From a virus, in the UHGV virus genome UHGV-0059692: DNA of 22,155 nucleotides. One strand, given 5' to 3'. This document shows, piece by piece, positions 2,866-14,367 of the stretch (positions are counted from its first letter, which is position 1; the number at the start of each line of letters is the position of its first letter). Both the position numbers and the translations under genes were made by a program. Below the pieces are notes generated by a model that saw only the letters and a program-made list of their open reading frames with translations, made no database searches and was not told where the DNA came from.

Positions 2866-3126
2866 ATGAAAAAACTAATTGTTGCTTGCATCTTATCGGC
2901 TCTGTCTTTTGGTGCTTTTGCTTCTGTAAATTCGACAGATAAGAGTGATGCTGGCACTGCTCAATATGGTGATACTAGCCTTGATAACCAACGTTCGAGT
3001 TATTTCAATACTGACTCATGGAAAGAAAAACAACTACAAGGTAAAATTATTGACAGTGAATGTAATTTACCTATCCATTTTTCTGGTGTAAATGATGGGT
3101 GTGAAAAAAATAAAAACAATGCATAA
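2866..3126 (+). CDS. Small secreted protein (86 aa precursor) with two cysteines; moron between J and tail fibre
   Basis: ATG at 2866 preceded by AAGGTG (2854-2859); N-terminus MKKLIVACILSALSFGAFA looks like a Sec signal peptide; opposite strand to all neighbours; AT-rich. Confidence 0.6.
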   Translation: MKKLIVACILSALSFGAFASVNSTDKSDAGTAQYGDTSLDNQRSSYFNTDSWKEKQLQGKIIDSECNLPIHFSGVNDGCEKNKNNA

Positions 3127-3154
3127 AAAAACGGGGCTTATGCCCCGTTTTTTT
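3124..3154. terminator. Bidirectional rho-independent terminator shared by the 2866-3126 gene and J
   Basis: Perfect hairpin cggggc-ttat-gccccg (3132-3147) flanked by an A-run (3124-3131) and a T-run (3148-3154); the stop codons of both convergent genes sit in the flanking runs. Confidence 0.7.
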
Positions 3155-6100
3155 ATGCTGTCGTTGATGTGCTAAATGATCCGGTGCCTCTTGCTACTAT
3201 CATTGTTGGAGAATACAACGCGGTACAATATGCGTATCCTTCAGATGATGATGTTTGAGGACAATATATTTTCCCGATAATATCTGATGCTTTTAAATCA
3301 GAAAAAGCGCATTGCACTGTTAATGTGCATCCACCATAAGGTACGTAATATGAAATTGTTTTGTTTTTACCTCCGCAACTAAACGTTACGTTATAAGTGG
3401 ATCTATATTCACCAGACATTAATGAAATAGTCGCCATAAGCATAACTGATTTCGTCAATGCATTATCCGTGCTGTCTTTATATGTGATGGTTGCGCTATA
3501 ACTTCCGTTATGCCCAAGTACTCGATCTGGACCAACCCCCATGTTAGCAACGTCACCGATAAATGACTTTGCCTCTACTGTACCTTTAAACTTCCCGCTT
3601 GTGGCCTGAATCTCACCAGTGAATTTACCAGATGTTGCGTACACCGTACCGCGTACAGTGACGTTGTTGAACTCCGCATTGCCGTTTTTATTTAGCATCC
3701 AGCCAGCAGAACCAGCTTTATAGTTGGTTGATTGAATTTGCTGCGCAATCTTCGCGGTAGTGATTGATGCGTCTCTGATCCACGCATCACGGATGTAGCA
3801 AGCACCGTTAGTAACATAGAACGGGGTCTGATAGGAGCCACCTGCCGCAGTCATAAGCACGAAACGGTCAACGAGGAAAATACACTGCGATTGAACGTTA
3901 GTCCCGCTACCAGTAAGGCCGAGCGACATTCCTGTAGCGTATTTCATGCCGTTTTTATCAGTGGCAATCTTAATTGAATATGACGCATCAACGTTACCTT
4001 TGAAGTCAGTCAGTGCTTTTGATGTCGTTTCTATCGCCGTTGTGTTTCCGTTAATAGTTACTTTCAACTGGTCGATTCTGGTTGACAATGCCTCGTCTGC
4101 CGTTGCCATAGCCCGCGACCATTCCGTGATGCTTGAGTTTACATCGTCGAAAGATGCCGATATTTGGACAAATTTTTCAGCACTTGATGCCTCGTGAGTT
4201 GCGAGCGCCGTTGATATATCTGTTATTTTTGCTGAAATGTTTTCATTAATATTGGCTTCAAGTGATGATATAGCCTCCGCGCGGGCCTGGGTTTCGTCCG
4301 CTATTGCTGTGTCGATCCTTGCTATTTCCGCTTTTGTTTTTATCTGGCCTTTCCTGTACTTCGCCTCAATAACAGTGCTCGCCTTGCTTTGCGCTATTGA
4401 GTTGTTGATAAGTGCAAGCGAGGCGTTTTGCAGACTTGCTTTCGCCTGATCTATTTCGTCGTTGTTTTTATCAACCTTATTTTCAACAAGACCAAGCTCC
4501 GCACTGATACCTGATATTGCCTGAGCGCGCGCGCTTGATTCGTCAGCGATAGCTTGATCCAGGCGGCTAACACTGGCATTTGTGTTATTTTCAAGCGTTG
4601 TTAAATCAGCTTTAACCTCTGTTATTGCATCGCTTCTTGCCTGCGTTTCATCTGATATTGCTTTATCGAGACGAGAAACGCTCGCATTAGTTTTGTTTTC
4701 CAGGCTGCTGATACTGGCGTTAACGTTGCTTATAGCCTCTGTTCTCGCCTGTGTTTCTGTTGCTATCGCTTTGTCTACGCGTGCTATTTCACCTTTGGTG
4801 TTTGAGTCCATCGCGCTTATTTCGGCTGTGATGGTTTCCAGTGATTCCGCTGTCGATTTTTTCTCCTCTGCGATAACGTTGTCGATGCGGTCAATCTGTG
4901 CCTTTGTTTCGTTGCGGCCTTTCTTATATTGAGCGGTAAGAGTAACCCGCGTGTTAGTTTGAGCAAGCGAGTTGTTGATCAGAGCAAGCGAAGCGTTTTG
5001 TAGACTTGCTTTTGTCTGTGCCAGTTCGTTATTAACGTTTTCGTTTGATACCTCTAATGAGTCTATTCTTACCTCATGTTTGCCTATTTCGTCGGCGTTT
5101 TCTTCGACTTTTTTATAAAGGGCTTCGGTGTCTTTTTTAAGTGTATCTGTATCAGCTTTAAGGCCATCTGTAGCTGTTTTAAGGTCGGCGGTTGCTGTTT
5201 TAAGGTCGGCGGTTGCGCTTTCTATAATATCAGTGCGATCACCAAGATCCTTAATATCACTTACCATTCCCTTAAATTGTTCTGAATTCATCACGTCTTT
5301 GGTGACGTAATCGCTAATTTCATCAAAATTTTCTGTCGGCTTACCTGATGCTTCCACAAAGTCAGACACGCCAAAAGCGTTACGCGTGCGCACATAAACG
5401 TAATAAGTATGGCCTGTATTCATGCCGCCAAACGTCCACTGATACCCGCGCCCGGTAAACTGCGCAGACGTGGTTATTTTTGCAGGATCCGTAATCTGGT
5501 TTTCCCCTGCATAGTAGAATTCATACGCTGTATCAGTTGTTAGCGTTGTCTTGCTTATCGGGTACACTGTAGCCTGAAATACACCTGGAACCCAGTTAAC
5601 GCCTATTGGCGAGTCGGGCGCACCGATAACAAGATCTACTATGCTTTCTGCACCCTTCATGCCAGTGTCATTTCTTCCGCGAACGCCTAACGAATACGCG
5701 CCAGCGTCGATGCCATAAAAATCATAACTGTATTTCGTTGTTTCGTAGCTTTTAACAACCGCACCATCGGCGTTATATATGCGGATCTCAAAGGTCATGC
5801 GATGCGTTGTTGTCTGTGTTTCCCATGTAGCGCGGCATTGAACCGTCTCTGACGCAATGTTTATGACTTTCAGGTTTTCGATGTTCGGAACACGGAAATG
5901 ATTAAGCGTGTCATTGTTGATTTCAAATATTGCTCCCTCATCAACTACCGCTTGTTTGTTCGGGTCATGTTGCGCTGCTTCGATGGTATACACGCTATTA
6001 TTTTCGGTTTCGGCTACACTGGTGATCCGACACAAAACTGGTTTTGCGGATTCAGTGGATACAGCAAAAACAGTGCCGTTGCGAATCCATGCCGGGGCCG

Positions 6101-9745: not shown

Positions 9746-9791
9746 TTACTCAAACGAAGGGGAAGTTAACAAAATGGCGCGGAGATGCGTT

Positions 9792-9980
9792 ATGACTGAA
9801 AAGCTATGGAAGTTGACGGTATTCATGACAGACGGTAGGGAAAAGGTTATCGCCATGTATGACGACGAGGGGGAAGCATTGGTTGACGCGCTTTTACTTG
9901 CTGAGGATGACCGCCTTTTGGGATACCAGATCGAACCTGTCAAATATGAGGCTAACAAAAATGAAAAAATACAGTCTTGA
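9792..9980 (+). CDS. Small acidic protein (62 aa), cassette gene A
   Basis: ATG 9792 with GGAG 7 nt upstream (alternative ATG at 9774); Asp/Glu-rich; its N-terminal half is paralogous to the N-terminus of gene B. Confidence 0.55.
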   Translation: MTEKLWKLTVFMTDGREKVIAMYDDEGEALVDALLLAEDDRLLGYQIEPVKYEANKNEKIQS

Positions 9981-10308
9981 TGTGTGGTTAAGTGGTAGCA
10001 AGGAGTGTTTCGGATTATTTGATAGCGAAGAAGTAGCCCTGGAAGAAGGCAGGATTCTTGAATGTAGTTTAGGCCATCCAGTGAAATATGCTGCTAATCC
10101 GGTACAGATAGTTGATGAGGTGGAAGATATGAACCCGAAAGATATTAATGTTAACTTCAATGTTAATTTTGCAGACTCTATGGATCAGTCTTGCCCTGGT
10201 GAAATACACGCAAAAGGTTTCCCGGCTGATGATCCTGATGCAAAACGCGAATACGAAAAAGCGGCAAAAGATTTCTGTATCGACAACCTGGGCGCGTTCA
10301 ATAAATAA
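9961..10308 (+). CDS. Acidic protein (115 aa) with four cysteines, cassette gene B
   Basis: ATG 9961 preceded by GAGG; overlaps gene A by 20 nt in another frame; N-terminal module resembles gene A; no family recognised. Confidence 0.6.
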   Translation: MKKYSLDVWLSGSKECFGLFDSEEVALEEGRILECSLGHPVKYAANPVQIVDEVEDMNPKDINVNFNVNFADSMDQSCPGEIHAKGFPADDPDAKREYEKAAKDFCIDNLGAFNK

Positions 10309-10317
10309 GGCGGCAAT

Positions 10318-10566
10318 ATGGCGCGGCGCAATAACGGTGACTATGTGTACACGTTGAAACAGGCCGCCCGCCTTATCGGTTATCATGAGCACGAATTTAT
10401 TGATTTGCTGATTGAGCGCGGGATTTTATACCAGGTCTGCTTAACGCTGTACCCGAAAGCAAAATACCTACAGGAAAAGCTATTCATTATCATGACGGAT
10501 GAAAATCAGGTTAATCATTCATTCGTCACTGATAAGGGCGTTAATTATCTGCGTGATAACCTATAG
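10318..10566 (+). CDS. Small DNA-binding-like protein (82 aa) resembling the ANT/KilAC antirepressor C-terminal domain, cassette gene C
   Basis: YTLKQAARLIGYHEHEFIDLLIERGILYQ followed by YPKAKYLQEKLF and VTDKGVNYL, the pattern I recall for KilA-C/ANT domains; starts 10 nt after gene B. Confidence 0.55.
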   Translation: MARRNNGDYVYTLKQAARLIGYHEHEFIDLLIERGILYQVCLTLYPKAKYLQEKLFIIMTDENQVNHSFVTDKGVNYLRDNL

Positions 10567-10576
10567 GTGACAGATT

Positions 10577-10693
10577 ATGAAAATAGAAGTTTTGGCACTA
10601 ATCGTGATGGGATTTATAGTATTCGGTGTTCATGCTGTAGATCTGGACTGGAAAACGATAGCAGAAAATATAGCGTTAATGGAAATGGAATAA
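10577..10693 (+). CDS. 38-aa hydrophobic peptide, cassette gene D
   Basis: Not in the ORF track (too short). ATG 10577 with AGGTGA 6 nt upstream; MKIEVLALIVMGFIVFGVHAVDLDWKTIAENIALMEME has one hydrophobic helix then an acidic tail; terminator follows directly. Confidence 0.45.
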   Translation: MKIEVLALIVMGFIVFGVHAVDLDWKTIAENIALMEME

Positions 10694-10698
10694 TAATA

Positions 10699-10725
10699 AC
10701 CCCGCTTCGCGCGGGGTCGTTTTTA
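10699..10725. terminator. Intrinsic terminator ending the plus-strand cassette; possibly also active on the minus strand
   Basis: Stem accccgc (10699-10705) / gcggggt (10711-10717), then T-run 10720-10724; the reverse complement is followed by TTATTATTATT. Confidence 0.65.
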
Positions 10726-10908
10726 TACGCCATCAAGTAAGAATAAAACTTCCTTGCCTTCCCTTGATCTGCATCCAACATAACCGTCGCCAACATCATG
10801 AAGATACCAGGTCTCACCATTATCAGCTTTTACAGTAAGGTCGTTTATTTCGTAGTCGTCAAACAATGTAAAAGCTCCAGTGCGGTCCACTACACAAATA
10901 GCATACAT
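10723..10908 (-). CDS. Hypothetical small protein (61 aa) translationally coupled to M
   Basis: ATG 10908 preceded by GGAGGGG 5 nt upstream, directly after the M stop codon; no lambda counterpart at this position. Confidence 0.5.
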   Translation of the reverse strand: MYAICVVDRTGAFTLFDDYEINDLTVKADNGETWYLHDVGDGYVGCRSREGKEVLFLLDGV

Positions 10909-10920
10909 ATTGCCCCTCCA

Positions 10921-11274
10921 TTAATTGACAACTTGTTCAAACGTTGCATTCAGCGTGCATACCGGGCCGTCTTTCGTCATGCTCCATTTTCGGCATACAA
11001 AAAGCCTTTGCACTCCGTCCGTTGATGGCGTCCAGTAAAACGCCTCGACCGCGCAACGTGCTCTTAAAAATGCGTCAACCTGGAGAGCCACGTTTCCGGC
11101 GTCACCATATCCGGCGCTCGTACCTTTAAAGACCAGTGTGTAGCTATCGAGCAAAGGATTGATCCCTTTAACCTGCCTTTGCTCGTAGTTGTCGCCCAGC
11201 TTAATGACAGACACGTTAGGCTCGCTGTTTACGCTATAGCTTCTTTGCGGTTTCCATCGGAATACTTCCGGCAT
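10921..11274 (-). CDS. M: Minor tail protein M (lambda gpM-like)
   Basis: 117 aa; N-terminal FRWKPQ and C-terminal ATFEQVVN match recalled lambda gpM (FRWKVKP, EFEQVVN). Confidence 0.9.
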   Translation of the reverse strand: MPEVFRWKPQRSYSVNSEPNVSVIKLGDNYEQRQVKGINPLLDSYTLVFKGTSAGYGDAGNVALQVDAFLRARCAVEAFYWTPSTDGVQRLFVCRKWSMTKDGPVCTLNATFEQVVN

Positions 11275-11441
11275 AAATCCCCCTACAAGTTACATTTTGT
11301 GTGTATCTTTACGCGCTTATACGCGAAAAATGAGATGTATATCACATGAATTATACCTAGTTTTCAAAATGGCTTCACTTTATGAACTCCATATTGTATA
11401 CAGAAAACAAATGAGAAAGACGTTGCACAAAGGGGGATGTT

Positions 11442-11696
11442 ATGAAACTGGTAGCGATTGACAAAAACCTGAAAGCACAGAAAAACGCACCTGAGCATGT
11501 AATCAAAAAAGCAAAAGATCTTCTGAGCGCGTTTTTAAGAAAGGATGTAGCGCCCAAAAAATTGAAAGACGGATACGGCTACGCCTTCCGCGCCAACCTT
11601 GATTGGCGAGTATACAGCCAGGATCTGAAAGCGTGGGTAATCGTTGAACATCATAAATTTAATGAATTATCTGGCGTGCGCGGTTGCCATAAGTGA
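11442..11696 (+). CDS. Hypothetical lysine-rich protein (84 aa); speculative RelE/ParE-like toxin fold
   Basis: ATG 11442 with AAGGGGGA upstream; opposite strand to flanking H and M; C-terminal pattern YAFRANLDWRVYSQDLKAWVIVEHHK loosely recalls RelE/ParE-family beta-strand motifs. Confidence 0.5.
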   Translation: MKLVAIDKNLKAQKNAPEHVIKKAKDLLSAFLRKDVAPKKLKDGYGYAFRANLDWRVYSQDLKAWVIVEHHKFNELSGVRGCHK

Positions 11697-11704
11697 GGCG
11701 GGAT

Positions 11705-11797
11705 ATGGAGGACGATAAATTCACCTGGCGTGAGATCTGGAACATCTGGCAAGTAATGTTTGCTCGCAGCTACATAGCAAGAAACGGAAGATTGTAA
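11705..11797 (+). CDS. Possible 30-aa Trp-rich mini-ORF
   Basis: Not in the ORF track. ATG 11705 with GAGG 5 nt upstream, overlapping the stop of the 84-aa gene; MEDDKFTWREIWNIWQVMFARSYIARNGRL. May be chance. Confidence 0.2.
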   Translation: MEDDKFTWREIWNIWQVMFARSYIARNGRL

Positions 11798-11815
11798 TTT
11801 GCGGAGGAAAATAAA

Positions 11816-11992
11816 ATGAAAGTCACTGCAAATAAAAGCAACGTCAAACGCATGGCCTGGATCGTAAAATGGATGGACACGAAAGGCGATACATACACAG
11901 AACCGTTTTTTAGATATACTGACGCAGTGTTCGCTAAAAGCGTAAGAGGCTGGAAAATTGAAAGAGGATATACAAGTTTTGAGAATGAATAA
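11816..11992 (+). CDS. Hypothetical small protein (58 aa)
   Basis: Not in the ORF track. ATG 11816 with GGAGGA 8 nt upstream; followed immediately by a terminator hairpin; MKVTANKSNVKRMAWIVKWMDTKGDTYTEPFFRYTDAVFAKSVRGWKIERGYTSFENE. Confidence 0.45.
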   Translation: MKVTANKSNVKRMAWIVKWMDTKGDTYTEPFFRYTDAVFAKSVRGWKIERGYTSFENE

Positions 11993-11997
11993 AAGAT

Positions 11998-12031
11998 AAC
12001 CCCGGCATTGTTCCGGGGTTTTGTTTATTTG
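11998..12031. terminator. Intrinsic terminator for the plus-strand small ORFs, overlapping the tape-measure stop codon
   Basis: Stem aaccccgg (11998-12005) / ccggggtt (12013-12020), loop cattgtt, then ttttgtttattt on the plus strand; a weaker U-tract on the minus strand. Confidence 0.6.
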
Positions 12032-14367
12032 CGGCGCGGTTGCAACATTCCGCCAGGTCTTTGAGATTCCCTTGTTATCATTTTCATGGCTACACGTTCC
12101 ATTGTTAATTCAAGTCTGCGGCTGTCTTCGTCGCTGAATCCGTTCGTGGTCTGAATGCTGATACTGACAGGCATACTAATACCGCCACCGCCGCCAATAT
12201 CACGGCCCGGAATAACTCTGCCGTTCTCGCCAGGAATCATATATTGATTCCCGTTAGGCGTCTGGAATAGCTCCGTCCTGTTGTTTTCCCCGACACGGTA
12301 CAAGTTGCCACCAATGACGCTACCACCATTAAAGCGCCTGCCACCGAAGATGGATGTTGCCAGAGACATGATCGCAGTGAGTGCCGCAGAGCCAGCCGCC
12401 GCCCAGCTACCGCCAGTTGATGCTGCTGTTGCCGCCGCTGCCGGGGCCGCTGCCGCAGCGATGCTACCCTGAGCGGCTACCGCACCTGCCGTTGTGCTGG
12501 CCTGCGTTGCCTTGCTTTGTGTCTCCATCATGATTTGATCTGCTATCCAGTTGGCGGCTATGTCAGAAAGCCTGTTGCCGATGTTCCCTAGTATATTGCT
12601 CCCTAAGTTAGCAAAAACATCGCTCAATGATTGAGTGCCGTTAAGCAGGCCAACAAGCGCATTGCTCATGCCACCTTTAAGGCCATTAACGCAATCACCG
12701 ATAAGGCCGTTAGTGTCGCTTTGCGCCTGCCACTGCTCCCATTTCAGATCGCGGATCTGCTGCTCATAGGCTAACAATTCCTGTTTCTGTTGTGCTTCTG
12801 TAGCGCCCAGGTCGATAAGCATTTGCTTACGGACGGCCCATTCATTTTGTGCCTGCTGGATGGGGTCAACCTCGCCTTTTAGCTGGTCCATCGGGCTAAC
12901 TATTTGCGACCATTTGTCACGCAGTTCATCTACCGGGATCTGCGCTAATTCTTCTTTCAGTTCCTTGCCGATCCCTTTTTGCGCGGCGCGGTACTCAAGG
13001 AGCGTGATTTTACCCTGGGCAAATGCAGCATCAATGGCCTTGCCGTTCTCCAACGCTTTGCGCATGGCGGCGGCGTCTTTGTTGTACTGATCAGAAACGC
13101 TTATACCTTTGTCACCAAGCCGATCAGCTTCCGATTTCTTCTCTTTTTTCTGTTTTTTCGGCTTGTCTACTGGCTTGTCGAATCCGGTAATCGCTCCGTC
13201 ATTGGCAGCATTCTGTTCATTTTTCCTTGCTTCTTCTGTAGCCTGGATTGCTGCGGTCAGATCATCCTGTAGTTGCATGACCTTGCCAACGGTCTTCCCG
13301 TATTTCTTCTCGTAGTTGCTGTTATATTCGTCGGTTTGCTCTCCTACTACCTCCTTCACCCATTTATAGGCGTCCATTAGTGCCTTGATTGGCGTCACCA
13401 TTGCGATGATCTTCTCGGCTACCTCGCCAGCCTTGATTCTGACATCTTCAAACATGTCGATGAATTCGCCACCAGCCGTCTTCAGGGTGTTAAAGCAGGT
13501 TTTAGCGAAATCAGTGCCTTCACCTAAATCCTTAACAGCTTTCGTTACAAAATCGATACCAGCAACAACCGTATCGGATACACCGAAAAGATCATCCAAT
13601 TGCTCAACAAGTCCCATAACCTCGACTTTAAGCTCATTCAGGGCCATGCCGGATGTGCGCGGCAACTGCGCAAACTTCTCGTTTGTTTCCTGCGTAGCCG
13701 CCTGGATTGCGTTAACCATCCTTTCTGCCGTGATCTTACCGTCCAGCATTTCGGCGCGGAATTGGCCCATTGATAACCCCATCTGGCGTGCCATTGTCTG
13801 TACGATGGTCGGGGTGTTTTCTAACAGGCTGTTGAATTCTTCAGCGCGCAACACGCCACCGTCGATAGACTGACGGAATTGACGCATTGAGTTTGACATC
13901 TGCTCCGCTGACGCGCCGCCCAACGCCCCCATTTTCTGAATCGTACCTACCAGGTTAAGCAATTGCCCTTCCGTAGCGGAGGTGTTTTTTAGTGAGATAG
14001 CCAGGCCTTGCCATAATTCGCCAGTATCTTTCAGGCTCTGCCCCGTCTCCCTGGATATTTCTTTCAGACCATCAAAAACCCGCCCGGCAGATTCCGCGTC
14101 GCCTGTAAGCATTTTGATTTTGACGCGTAGCATTTTGGCCTGCTCTGCCATTTCCATAAACTGTCTAACGGCCTCGGCAGCAATTAGCAGATGGATAACC
14201 CTGGTCAGTGCTTTGATTGATGTTTTCAGTGTGTTTACCTGGCGATCGGCCTGTTTAGCACCGCGCTCTATACGGTCAAAGGCCTGGTCTGCCTGTCGTT
14301 GTGCTACAAGAAGTTGTCCTGTTTTTGCGTCAACTTCGTAATAAATTGTGCCTACACTGGTAGCCAT
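12025..14367 (-). CDS. H: Tail tape measure protein
   Basis: 780 aa, largely helical, with a Gly/Ala-rich hydrophobic C-terminal region; sits between the chaperone position and M; GAGGT upstream. Confidence 0.9.
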   Translation of the reverse strand: MATSVGTIYYEVDAKTGQLLVAQRQADQAFDRIERGAKQADRQVNTLKTSIKALTRVIHLLIAAEAVRQFMEMAEQAKMLRVKIKMLTGDAESAGRVFDGLKEISRETGQSLKDTGELWQGLAISLKNTSATEGQLLNLVGTIQKMGALGGASAEQMSNSMRQFRQSIDGGVLRAEEFNSLLENTPTIVQTMARQMGLSMGQFRAEMLDGKITAERMVNAIQAATQETNEKFAQLPRTSGMALNELKVEVMGLVEQLDDLFGVSDTVVAGIDFVTKAVKDLGEGTDFAKTCFNTLKTAGGEFIDMFEDVRIKAGEVAEKIIAMVTPIKALMDAYKWVKEVVGEQTDEYNSNYEKKYGKTVGKVMQLQDDLTAAIQATEEARKNEQNAANDGAITGFDKPVDKPKKQKKEKKSEADRLGDKGISVSDQYNKDAAAMRKALENGKAIDAAFAQGKITLLEYRAAQKGIGKELKEELAQIPVDELRDKWSQIVSPMDQLKGEVDPIQQAQNEWAVRKQMLIDLGATEAQQKQELLAYEQQIRDLKWEQWQAQSDTNGLIGDCVNGLKGGMSNALVGLLNGTQSLSDVFANLGSNILGNIGNRLSDIAANWIADQIMMETQSKATQASTTAGAVAAQGSIAAAAAPAAAATAASTGGSWAAAGSAALTAIMSLATSIFGGRRFNGGSVIGGNLYRVGENNRTELFQTPNGNQYMIPGENGRVIPGRDIGGGGGISMPVSISIQTTNGFSDEDSRRLELTMERVAMKMITRESQRPGGMLQPRRK

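Follow-up and report, generated by a model that had tools for sequence, protein, structure and literature searches.

In the RNase branch of the RelE/ParE toxin superfamily, a conserved Arg, a conserved His and an aromatic residue are typical, and toxins of the YoeB, RelE, HigB and YafQ type usually begin with a strand and two helices. Partners of superfamily members may be small: PaaA2, which is comparable to the 51-aa protein described below, lacks a recognisable DNA-binding domain. A further family with a ParE-like label, PF24732, is already recorded in Pfam, PHROGs and NCBI naming, and published phage genomes already contain a cassette encoding one of its members, annotated as “hypothetical proteins”; our literature search found no experimental work on PF24732, and the mEpimmI genome paper does not discuss the cassette. 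For the position of such a cassette, the closest described architecture is the non-contiguous taiEcA/atiEcA operon of phage phi80, in which an antisense gene lies within a Q-dependent late operon and is expressed in the lysogen (PMC11364771); its expression falls when Q, which drives late transcription, is supplied (PMC11364771). Here we describe a locus of an E. coli prophage at which an annotated, uncharacterised phage-borne toxin-fold family has naturally lost its conserved upstream gene, and this loss is what sets it apart. Since orphan toxins, such as OrtT (PMC4344625), are already known, a toxin–antitoxin (TA) specialist would be only mildly surprised.

The analysed DNA, hereafter the window, is a stretch of 22,155 nt from the virus genome UHGV-0059692. 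It represents the structural-gene arm of an E. coli prophage belonging to the mEp021/mEpimmI group and is 82–87% identical, over about 70–80% of its length, to MagusPhagus, mEp021, mEp010, mEp044, mEp013, mEp515 and mEp554, with nt 1–441 matching E. coli chromosomal genes. The tail genes of the window are on the minus strand, and the cassette (11275–12031) is on the plus strand between the genes for the tape measure protein and minor tail protein M. On its left, in the late operon, lies the gene for M (10921–11274, minus strand; PF05939, E 2.1e-28; phrog_14), and on its right that for the tape measure protein (12025–14367, minus strand; PF20155, E 9e-50; phrog_1538, E 1e-154). The cassette has a GC content of 37–45% versus 51–59% for the flanking tail genes. 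As the earlier note had described, this plus-strand unit contains ORFs of 84, 30 and 58 aa. The first (11442–11696), hereafter the ParE-like gene, encodes a lysine-rich protein (14 of 84 residues are Lys) and is preceded by a strong ribosome-binding site, the Shine–Dalgarno (SD) sequence AAGGGGGA (11430–11437), both again as noted earlier. The second, p30 (11705–11797), encodes a Trp-rich peptide (MEDDKFTWREIWNIWQVMFARSYIARNGRL) and has its own SD, GAGG, 6 nt before its ATG. The third, p58 (11816–11992), encodes a basic protein and has its own SD, GGAGG. All three are on the plus strand. An Rfam scan of 10500–12600 returned no known RNA and a sub-threshold chance match alone. Although the Trp-rich ORF is genuine, the overlap with the 84-aa ORF that had been proposed for it does not hold with the conserved ATG, which begins 8 nt past the 84-aa stop codon in the window and 8–11 nt past it in most loci; an overlap would require the GTG start at 11693, which is not conserved.

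To judge the coding status of these ORFs, we collected 55 homologous loci, comprising those of 7 isolated phages, of E. coli prophages and of 46 IMG/VR contigs, and calculated substitution rates by the Nei–Gojobori method from 27–53 homologous loci per ORF. In the annotated frame, dN/dS is 0.083 for the 84-aa ORF, 0.036 for the 30-aa ORF and 0.131 for the 58-aa ORF, with synonymous divergence of 0.41–0.70, whereas in the two shifted frames dN/dS is 1.1–2.2; the sequence pairs are not phylogenetically independent, yet the contrast between frames is large. Because the in-frame values lie far below those of the shifted frames, the three ORFs are protein-coding and constrained, i.e., genuine genes. 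The amino-acid conservation of the 30- and 58-aa ORFs, which the earlier note had wished to see checked, is thereby borne out.

The 84-aa protein matches PF24732 (ParE_like) over residues 18–74 with 30.2 bits against a cut-off of 24.4 (E 4.5e-7), its mEp021 homologue scores 47.2 bits against the same model, and PF24732 is the sole meaningful Pfam match in all 27 family members. The protein also matches phrog_1525, and PGAP names its homologues “ParE family toxin-like protein”. The family is small: when 1.8 billion representative proteins were searched exhaustively with a profile, just 11 relatives reached E ≤ 0.001, and a word-indexed profile search retrieved 28 at E ≤ 0.01, annotated as PF24732 wherever a domain is recorded. 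With a 27-sequence alignment, AlphaFold2 (AF2) gave a confident model (pLDDT 85.2, pTM 0.74), which took the place of a poor one built from just 10 sequences (pLDDT 56.8). The resulting model contains a β-hairpin (residues 3–13), a helix (18–32), three strands (47–69) and a second helix (70–77), in line with the RelE/ParE fold of solved toxins, in which one or more helices pack on an antiparallel sheet of at least three strands. When the PDB was searched with this model using Foldseek, the top 20 matches were YoeB, YafQ, HigB, RelK and similar toxins, with a probability of up to 0.98, and the top 50 were nearly all YoeB, YafQ, HigB, RelK, GraT and ParE2, with weak E-values of at least 0.04. 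Among the viral models of BFVD, it comes closest to proteins labelled “ParE-like toxin domain” from Yersinia phage fHe-Yen9-04 and Klebsiella phage RaK2 (TM 0.72–0.83). At the sequence level, neither the protein alone nor either of two profiles had a significant match in the PDB, where YoeB came closest (E 0.38), and NCBIfam and PADLOC gave no usable match for the cassette proteins. A DrmC match (E 0.052) was dismissed as noise, and a marginal Faecalibacterium match from a scan of genome contigs, covering residues 8–44 alone, was not used. Collectively, the predicted model and the family match make the assignment to the RelE/ParE-superfamily fold sound but distant, and the loose resemblance to RelE/ParE toxins guessed at from the sequence alone proved well founded.

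Within this fold, the pattern of conservation bears on the kind of activity. R56 never varies among the 27 family members and additional phage homologues, K40 and H70 hardly vary, and position 73 is conserved as Y/F; Y/F73 is followed by a conserved N/D74, a pattern also found in homologues from Serratia, Kosakonia, Escherichia and Aeromonas phages. The 84-aa protein shares the PF24732 motif P-K/R-K-L ... W/Y-R-L-L-S ... W-x-L-x-x-H-E-x-Y-N. In an hhalign comparison with YoeB, residues 17–61 align with YoeB residues 19–69 at a pairwise E of 0.017, placing R56 on R65, the catalytic Arg of YoeB; the position equivalent to Glu46, the catalytic Glu of YoeB, is occupied by Lys. Since R56, H70, Y/F73 and K/R40 are conserved, an RNase-type activity is preferred over gyrase poisoning, and the 84-aa protein is probably an RNase-type effector. 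That it is instead, in keeping with its Pfam and NCBI names, a true ParE and poison of DNA gyrase is very unlikely: HigB, YoeB, RelE and YafQ all score above every ParE in the Foldseek ranking, the classical ParE_toxin Pfam family matches none of the 27 members, and the conserved Arg, His and aromatic residue are typical of the RNase branch.

In most relatives the ParE-like gene does not stand first. A gene for a 51-aa protein, p51 (MKRYVVVMLNNAFEQVEVAIVKGFDDAFKYGQFMMNAKEDEYRDFFLKVVN), lies 17–24 nt upstream of it in 50 of the 55 loci, and in 14 loci nothing but p51 and the ParE-like gene separates M from the tape measure gene. The dN/dS of p51 is 0.056. A search of 5,426 complete E. coli genomes found the ParE-like gene in 35 and p51 in 34, always adjacent where both occur, and a reverse search of IMG/VR found p51 at 44 loci, solely on contigs that also have the ParE-like gene. 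Annotated versions of p51 with 68–89 aa, which carry an N-terminal extension, were rejected, as indels of 1–2 nt shift the frame of the extension between loci; the 51-aa start is the one with the strong SD. The stable pair thus consists of p51 and the ParE-like gene, with the putative antitoxin ahead of the toxin as in the canonical type II TA layout. E. coli strain PAR has an intact p51 beside a frameshifted ParE-like gene. Position and linkage are what mark p51 as the putative antitoxin; compared with Pfam, NCBIfam, PADLOC and PHROGs, it has no similarity to an antitoxin or DNA-binding family at meaningful E-values, and it belongs to a narrow, unnamed family for which we found no relatives outside the mEp021-group clade.

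In the window, p51 is missing. Alignment of the upstream regions of four loci lacking p51 (the window, E. coli UMNK88, i.e., L005, and the viral contigs L037 and L038) with those of seven p51-bearing loci reveals a clean deletion of about 175 nt that extends from just after the p51 SD to just before the ATG of the ParE-like gene. The junction lies between 11438 and 11439 on the plus strand and reads ACAAAGGGGGAT|GTTATG identically in all four. Because the four share the same junction, the loss of p51 points to one ancestral event. The SD of p51 has thereby been fused to the start of the ParE-like gene, which would now be translated from the ribosome-binding site that serves p51 in relatives. 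Upstream of it, the control region (11275–11441, plus strand) aligns block by block with the region preceding p51 in relatives, whether p51 is present or not. An ORF within this region, ending at 11461 and starting at 11297 (54 aa, TTG) or 11370 (30 aa, ATG), was considered as a partner and rejected, as it falls in conserved non-coding control sequence and has no equivalent frame in relatives.

The ParE-like gene has outlived the deletion. In UMNK88 it is intact, and p51 occurs nowhere in the whole genome. Between L005 and L037 the gene differs by 7 synonymous and 3 non-synonymous changes (pS 0.141, pN 0.015), a split estimated from a binomial to arise about once in 1000 under neutrality. The allele of the window is 62% identical to that of L005, L037 and L038, while its p30 is closest to that of L005 and its p58 to that of L037; this mix of affinities shows that recombination took place later. 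Relative to the nearest p51-linked allele, the window allele shows three amino-acid replacements over 31 nucleotide changes (A26D, N29S and N33R), all at variable helix positions and none at conserved ones. Strain MFDS1019527 carries a second, independent lesion of p51, a 1-nt deletion at codon 5 that may be a sequencing error, again with an intact ParE-like gene. As judged from these comparisons, the ParE-like gene stays intact and under purifying selection after the loss of p51. Set against what is expected of type II TA systems, an adjacent, co-inherited gene pair is found in relatives and is broken in the window by the deletion of p51; the putative toxin is kept without its antitoxin in the window, UMNK88, L037 and L038; and none of p51, p30 and p58 has a recognisable antitoxin or DNA-binding domain. 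Several readings of the p51 loss remain: the toxin may be mild or conditional, it may be neutralised by another product (p30 or p58), or it may not be an addiction toxin.

The second of these readings concerns the two downstream genes. An intact p30 occurs at 32 loci, in versions that amount to 26 different nucleotide and 16 different protein sequences (pS 0.70, pN 0.068), and p58 is present at 27; neither matches a family in Pfam, PHROGs, NCBIfam or PADLOC. They lie in a hotspot of variable content, in which p30, p58, an acidic 60-aa gene, HNH endonuclease genes and zinc-ribbon genes occur in many combinations. In mEp021, for example, a diverged p30-like ORF (70% identity) is present and zinc-ribbon genes replace p58. 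On L055, a 140-kb viral contig, a p30-like/p58-like pair lies 2.3 kb from the ParE-like gene, the p58 relative being 75 aa long and placed after the p30-like gene; tblastn of this 75-aa protein against isolated phages found nothing. A layout in which the 84-aa protein is a toxin encoded first and neutralised by downstream p30 (or p58), rendering p51 dispensable in the lineage of the window, would explain why every locus without a working p51 has both p30 and p58 (the window, L005, L037, L038 and L006, in which p51 is frameshifted). It would also fit the placement of p30, with its own SD, 8–11 nt after the ParE-like stop codon in most loci, and the confinement of p30 and p58 in E. coli genomes to ParE-like loci (both in 16 genomes, all within the set having the ParE-like gene); in the reverse IMG/VR search, p58 was likewise found at 21 loci, solely on contigs that also have the ParE-like gene. 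Farther afield, in L061, L063 and L065, a distant PF24732 gene is followed by an overlapping gene of about 92–93 aa, itself a toxin-first layout, and p58 has a weak local match to the downstream gene of L063 (30% identical across 30 aa, E 0.003 against a very small database). However, p30 is absent from 22 of the 50 p51-bearing loci and both genes are absent from 14; an HNH gene and another ORF intervene between the ParE-like gene and p30 in mEp515, L011 and L008; mEp021 has no p58, and the L055 pair stands 2.3 kb away; and neither protein has a family or domain match. Moreover, the association with p51 loss amounts to about 2 independent events against a background of about 40%, which gives a chance probability of about 0.07–0.18 and is not significant. 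We therefore hold a toxin-first TA system to be decidedly improbable here, and a neutralising action of p30 or p58 on the 84-aa protein finds weak support. The suggestion that the 30- or 58-aa ORF is the partner gives way to p51 as the conserved neighbour: p30 and p58 come and go and, by their distribution, are separately mobile accessory genes of the hotspot.

Relatives of the 84-aa protein elsewhere bear on the third reading, in which PF24732 members serve phages as accessory proteins, with the RelE/ParE fold put to uses other than addiction, p51 is an unrelated or regulatory neighbour, and its loss costs nothing. Tasks of this kind in infection or lysogeny could be, for example, ribosome or nucleic-acid binding or counter-defence. 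PF24732 members are encoded by the virulent jumbo phages RaK2 and fHe-Yen9-04, where plasmid-style addiction makes no sense, and others lie in long early arrays of small phage genes that all point the same way, overlapping varied neighbours by 4 nt; a ParB-like gene is the neighbour twice, once in Serratia phage OS31 and once in an Enterobacter island. Members preceding an overlapping gene of about 92 aa adjoin Tn7-like or BrxR-like genes. The jumbo-phage and early-array members thus fit a non-addiction role, as do the tolerated loss of p51 with continued purifying selection on the ParE-like gene, and the lack of a PADLOC or NCBIfam match. Against it speak the tight and exclusive linkage of p51 and the ParE-like gene within the mEp021-group clade, the invariant Arg and conserved His and aromatic residue where RelE-type RNases have catalytic residues, and the decay in strain PAR, which is classical in losing the toxin frame and keeping p51. 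On balance, we regard a non-addiction accessory protein as a rather unlikely explanation. A bolder proposal, to which we give slightly less credence still, is that PF24732 proteins are phage-specific RelE-fold effectors that can work without an antitoxin, with p30 as a tiny antitoxin or with an RNase that stays inactive until a cue from phage infection. If PF24732 were indeed antitoxin-free, the p51 deletions and the MFDS1019527 frameshift would be natural knock-outs in which the “toxin” remains under purifying selection.

How the cassette might be expressed is suggested by signals at its two ends. Upstream, direct repeats of TACGCG at 11310–11315 and 11320–11325 are spaced with a 10-bp period, i.e., one helical turn, and a weak candidate promoter (−35 ATCACA at 11341–11346, an 18-nt spacer and −10 CAAAAT at 11365–11370; score 8/12) is found at an equivalent position in the majority of 48 distinct upstream sequences, some 100 nt ahead of the first start codon at most loci. 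A stricter consensus scan returned no plus-strand promoter. From the conserved position, we infer that the cassette has a promoter of its own. Downstream, a bidirectional intrinsic terminator spans 11998–12030 and consists of a stem (11998–12020) and a T-tract (TTGTTTATTT); the hairpin has 8 bp, 6 of them GC, a dG of −14.7 kcal/mol and a z-score of −2.28, and it scores as a terminator on both strands. The previously noted overlap of this terminator with the tape-measure stop codon (12025–12027) applies to the T-tract but not to the stem. Of the features that define a moron, a terminator, a GC content below that of the flanks and variable gene content are found, and the promoter is a weak candidate at a conserved position.

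The explanation that we favour, with a likelihood somewhat above even, is that the 84-aa protein is a RelE/ParE-fold, RNase-type effector carried in a moron and derived from a p51–toxin pair by deletion of p51, with p30 and p58 as accessory genes. The cassette would be a moron of the lysogenic-conversion type, carried by an E. coli prophage of the mEp021 group (mEpimmI) within its late tail operon but against the direction of that operon. In the lysogen, a weak promoter belonging to the cassette would drive transcription as far as the bidirectional terminator, and in lytic growth late transcription from the other side would dampen it. The 84-aa protein would act, like YoeB, RelE and HigB, as a translation-directed RNase and not as a gyrase poison, with an activity mild or conditional enough to be carried without p51 and compatible with viability of the lysogen, and prophage-borne defence or host modulation is a plausible use. 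Some observations pull the other way: a potent type II toxin would predict the opposite of what is seen, p51 being lost beside an intact “toxin”; the position of Glu46 holds Lys; p51 lacks antitoxin similarity; and the promoter is a weak match to consensus.

Morons that prophages carry in their tail operons have been rich in genes for defence and host modulation, and the natural variants with and without p51 constitute a ready-made genetic test of whether an antitoxin is needed, an easy one given that mEp021-group phages grow on E. coli K-12. Were the protein to prove a weak TA toxin of the ordinary kind, this would amount to routine annotation; its value lies in the easy experimental entry that the locus offers into a phage-borne RelE-fold family.

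A comparison with the known systems sets the locus in place. As in phi80, the cassette is an oppositely oriented, autonomously terminated, low-GC unit in an antiterminated late operon; it differs in its site, at the junction of the tape measure and M genes, and in its proteins, which are unrelated (TaiEcA is a 26-kDa protein). Tai and Ati of phi80 were accordingly set aside as homologues and serve as an architectural precedent only. With ParDE and with the three-gene prophage system PaaR2-PaaA2-ParE2 of E. coli O157:H7, the locus shares the superfamily fold, a prophage-borne location and, in relatives, a small upstream partner. To YoeB, RelE, HigB and YafQ the 84-aa protein is moderately similar, yet it has an N-terminal β-hairpin and one long helix in place of their strand and two helices, carries Lys where YoeB has Glu46, has no Pfam match to their families and has no YefM-, RelB- or HigA-type antitoxin nearby. 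Its closest described kin are the members of PF24732/phrog_1525, with which it shares a score above the curated cut-off, the 70–90-aa length class and the common motif, and from which the window copy differs in standing without the upstream 51-aa gene found in 50 of the 55 related loci.

Just upstream of the candidate -35 element of the cassette between the tape measure gene and M, two TACGCG hexamers lie 10 bp apart on the plus strand (11310-11325). The pair is kept in nearly all loci, whether p51, the 51-aa gene that usually precedes the ParE-like gene (PF24732), is present or absent, and it could be an operator for some regulator. At the downstream end of the cassette, codon 46 of the small accessory gene p58 (11951-11953) encodes Trp in the window (SVRGWKIERG), whereas all 18 other distinct p58 sequences carry Gly (SVRGGKIERG).

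Lesions in either p51 or the ParE-like gene are found in two compared E. coli prophages. In E. coli MFDS1019527 (locus L006), p51 (1851-1988) has a 1-nt deletion at codon 5, reading MKRYE followed by two stops, and the ParE-like gene downstream is intact; either p51 has been lost here a second time, independently, or the assembly is at fault. The reverse of the window pattern is seen in E. coli PAR (locus L007), in which p51 is intact and the ParE-like gene downstream of it (2004-2257) is frameshifted, with PGAP calling only a 53-aa fragment.

In three loci, an HNH endonuclease gene directly follows the ParE-like gene (L003, 2747-3253; L011, 3243-3746; L008, 2744-3226), its start overlapping the final codons of that gene, and the insertion cuts p30, the small accessory gene otherwise downstream, off from the ParE-like gene. 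HNH genes also occur at other places within the same tail region in L010 and L033, and the overall pattern suggests homing-endonuclease traffic at this hotspot between M and the tape measure gene.

Related genes are also carried by IMGVR_UViG_3300045988_159287 (L055), a 140.6-kb viral contig of a type without counterpart among isolated phages. There, p30-like (36 aa) and p58-like (75 aa) genes adjoin as a pair (325-707), and 2.3 kb beyond them comes a ParE-like gene for an 88-aa protein (3001-3267). All three belong to an extended series of small genes on one strand, a pool that may have supplied the prophage cassette. In two unrelated elements, Serratia phage vB_SspS_OS31 (L131, 368-1401) and an Enterobacter asburiae island (L057, 1897-2713), the last 4-20 nt of a ParB-like/HTH_ParB gene are shared with a PF24732 gene, and such ParB-like/ParE_like pairing may be recurrent. 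The authors of the Serratia phage named its PF24732 gene "HigB-like".

At the left end of the window, nucleotides 1-441 are 99.3% identical to a stretch of phage record ON470595.1 annotated "zinc transport protein | diguanylate cyclase", and are probably host chromosomal DNA where the prophage ends.

Tail genes L and M are separated by the first antisense insert in the window (9780-10566, plus strand). Its three genes, all kept across the mEp021 group, are a small gene (MTEKLWKLTVFMTDGREKV...) with a 51-aa homologue in mEp021-group phages, a 115-aa gene (phrog_38567, E 2e-73) and a gene for an 82-aa KilAC/ANT-domain protein (PF03374, E 6.5e-7; phrog_5689). Immediately 3' of M, on the late-operon (minus) strand, the window has a 61-aa ORF (10723-10908; phrog_3249, E 1.5e-21), which carries the annotation "hypothetical" in every related phage. 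Lambda has no gene at this position.
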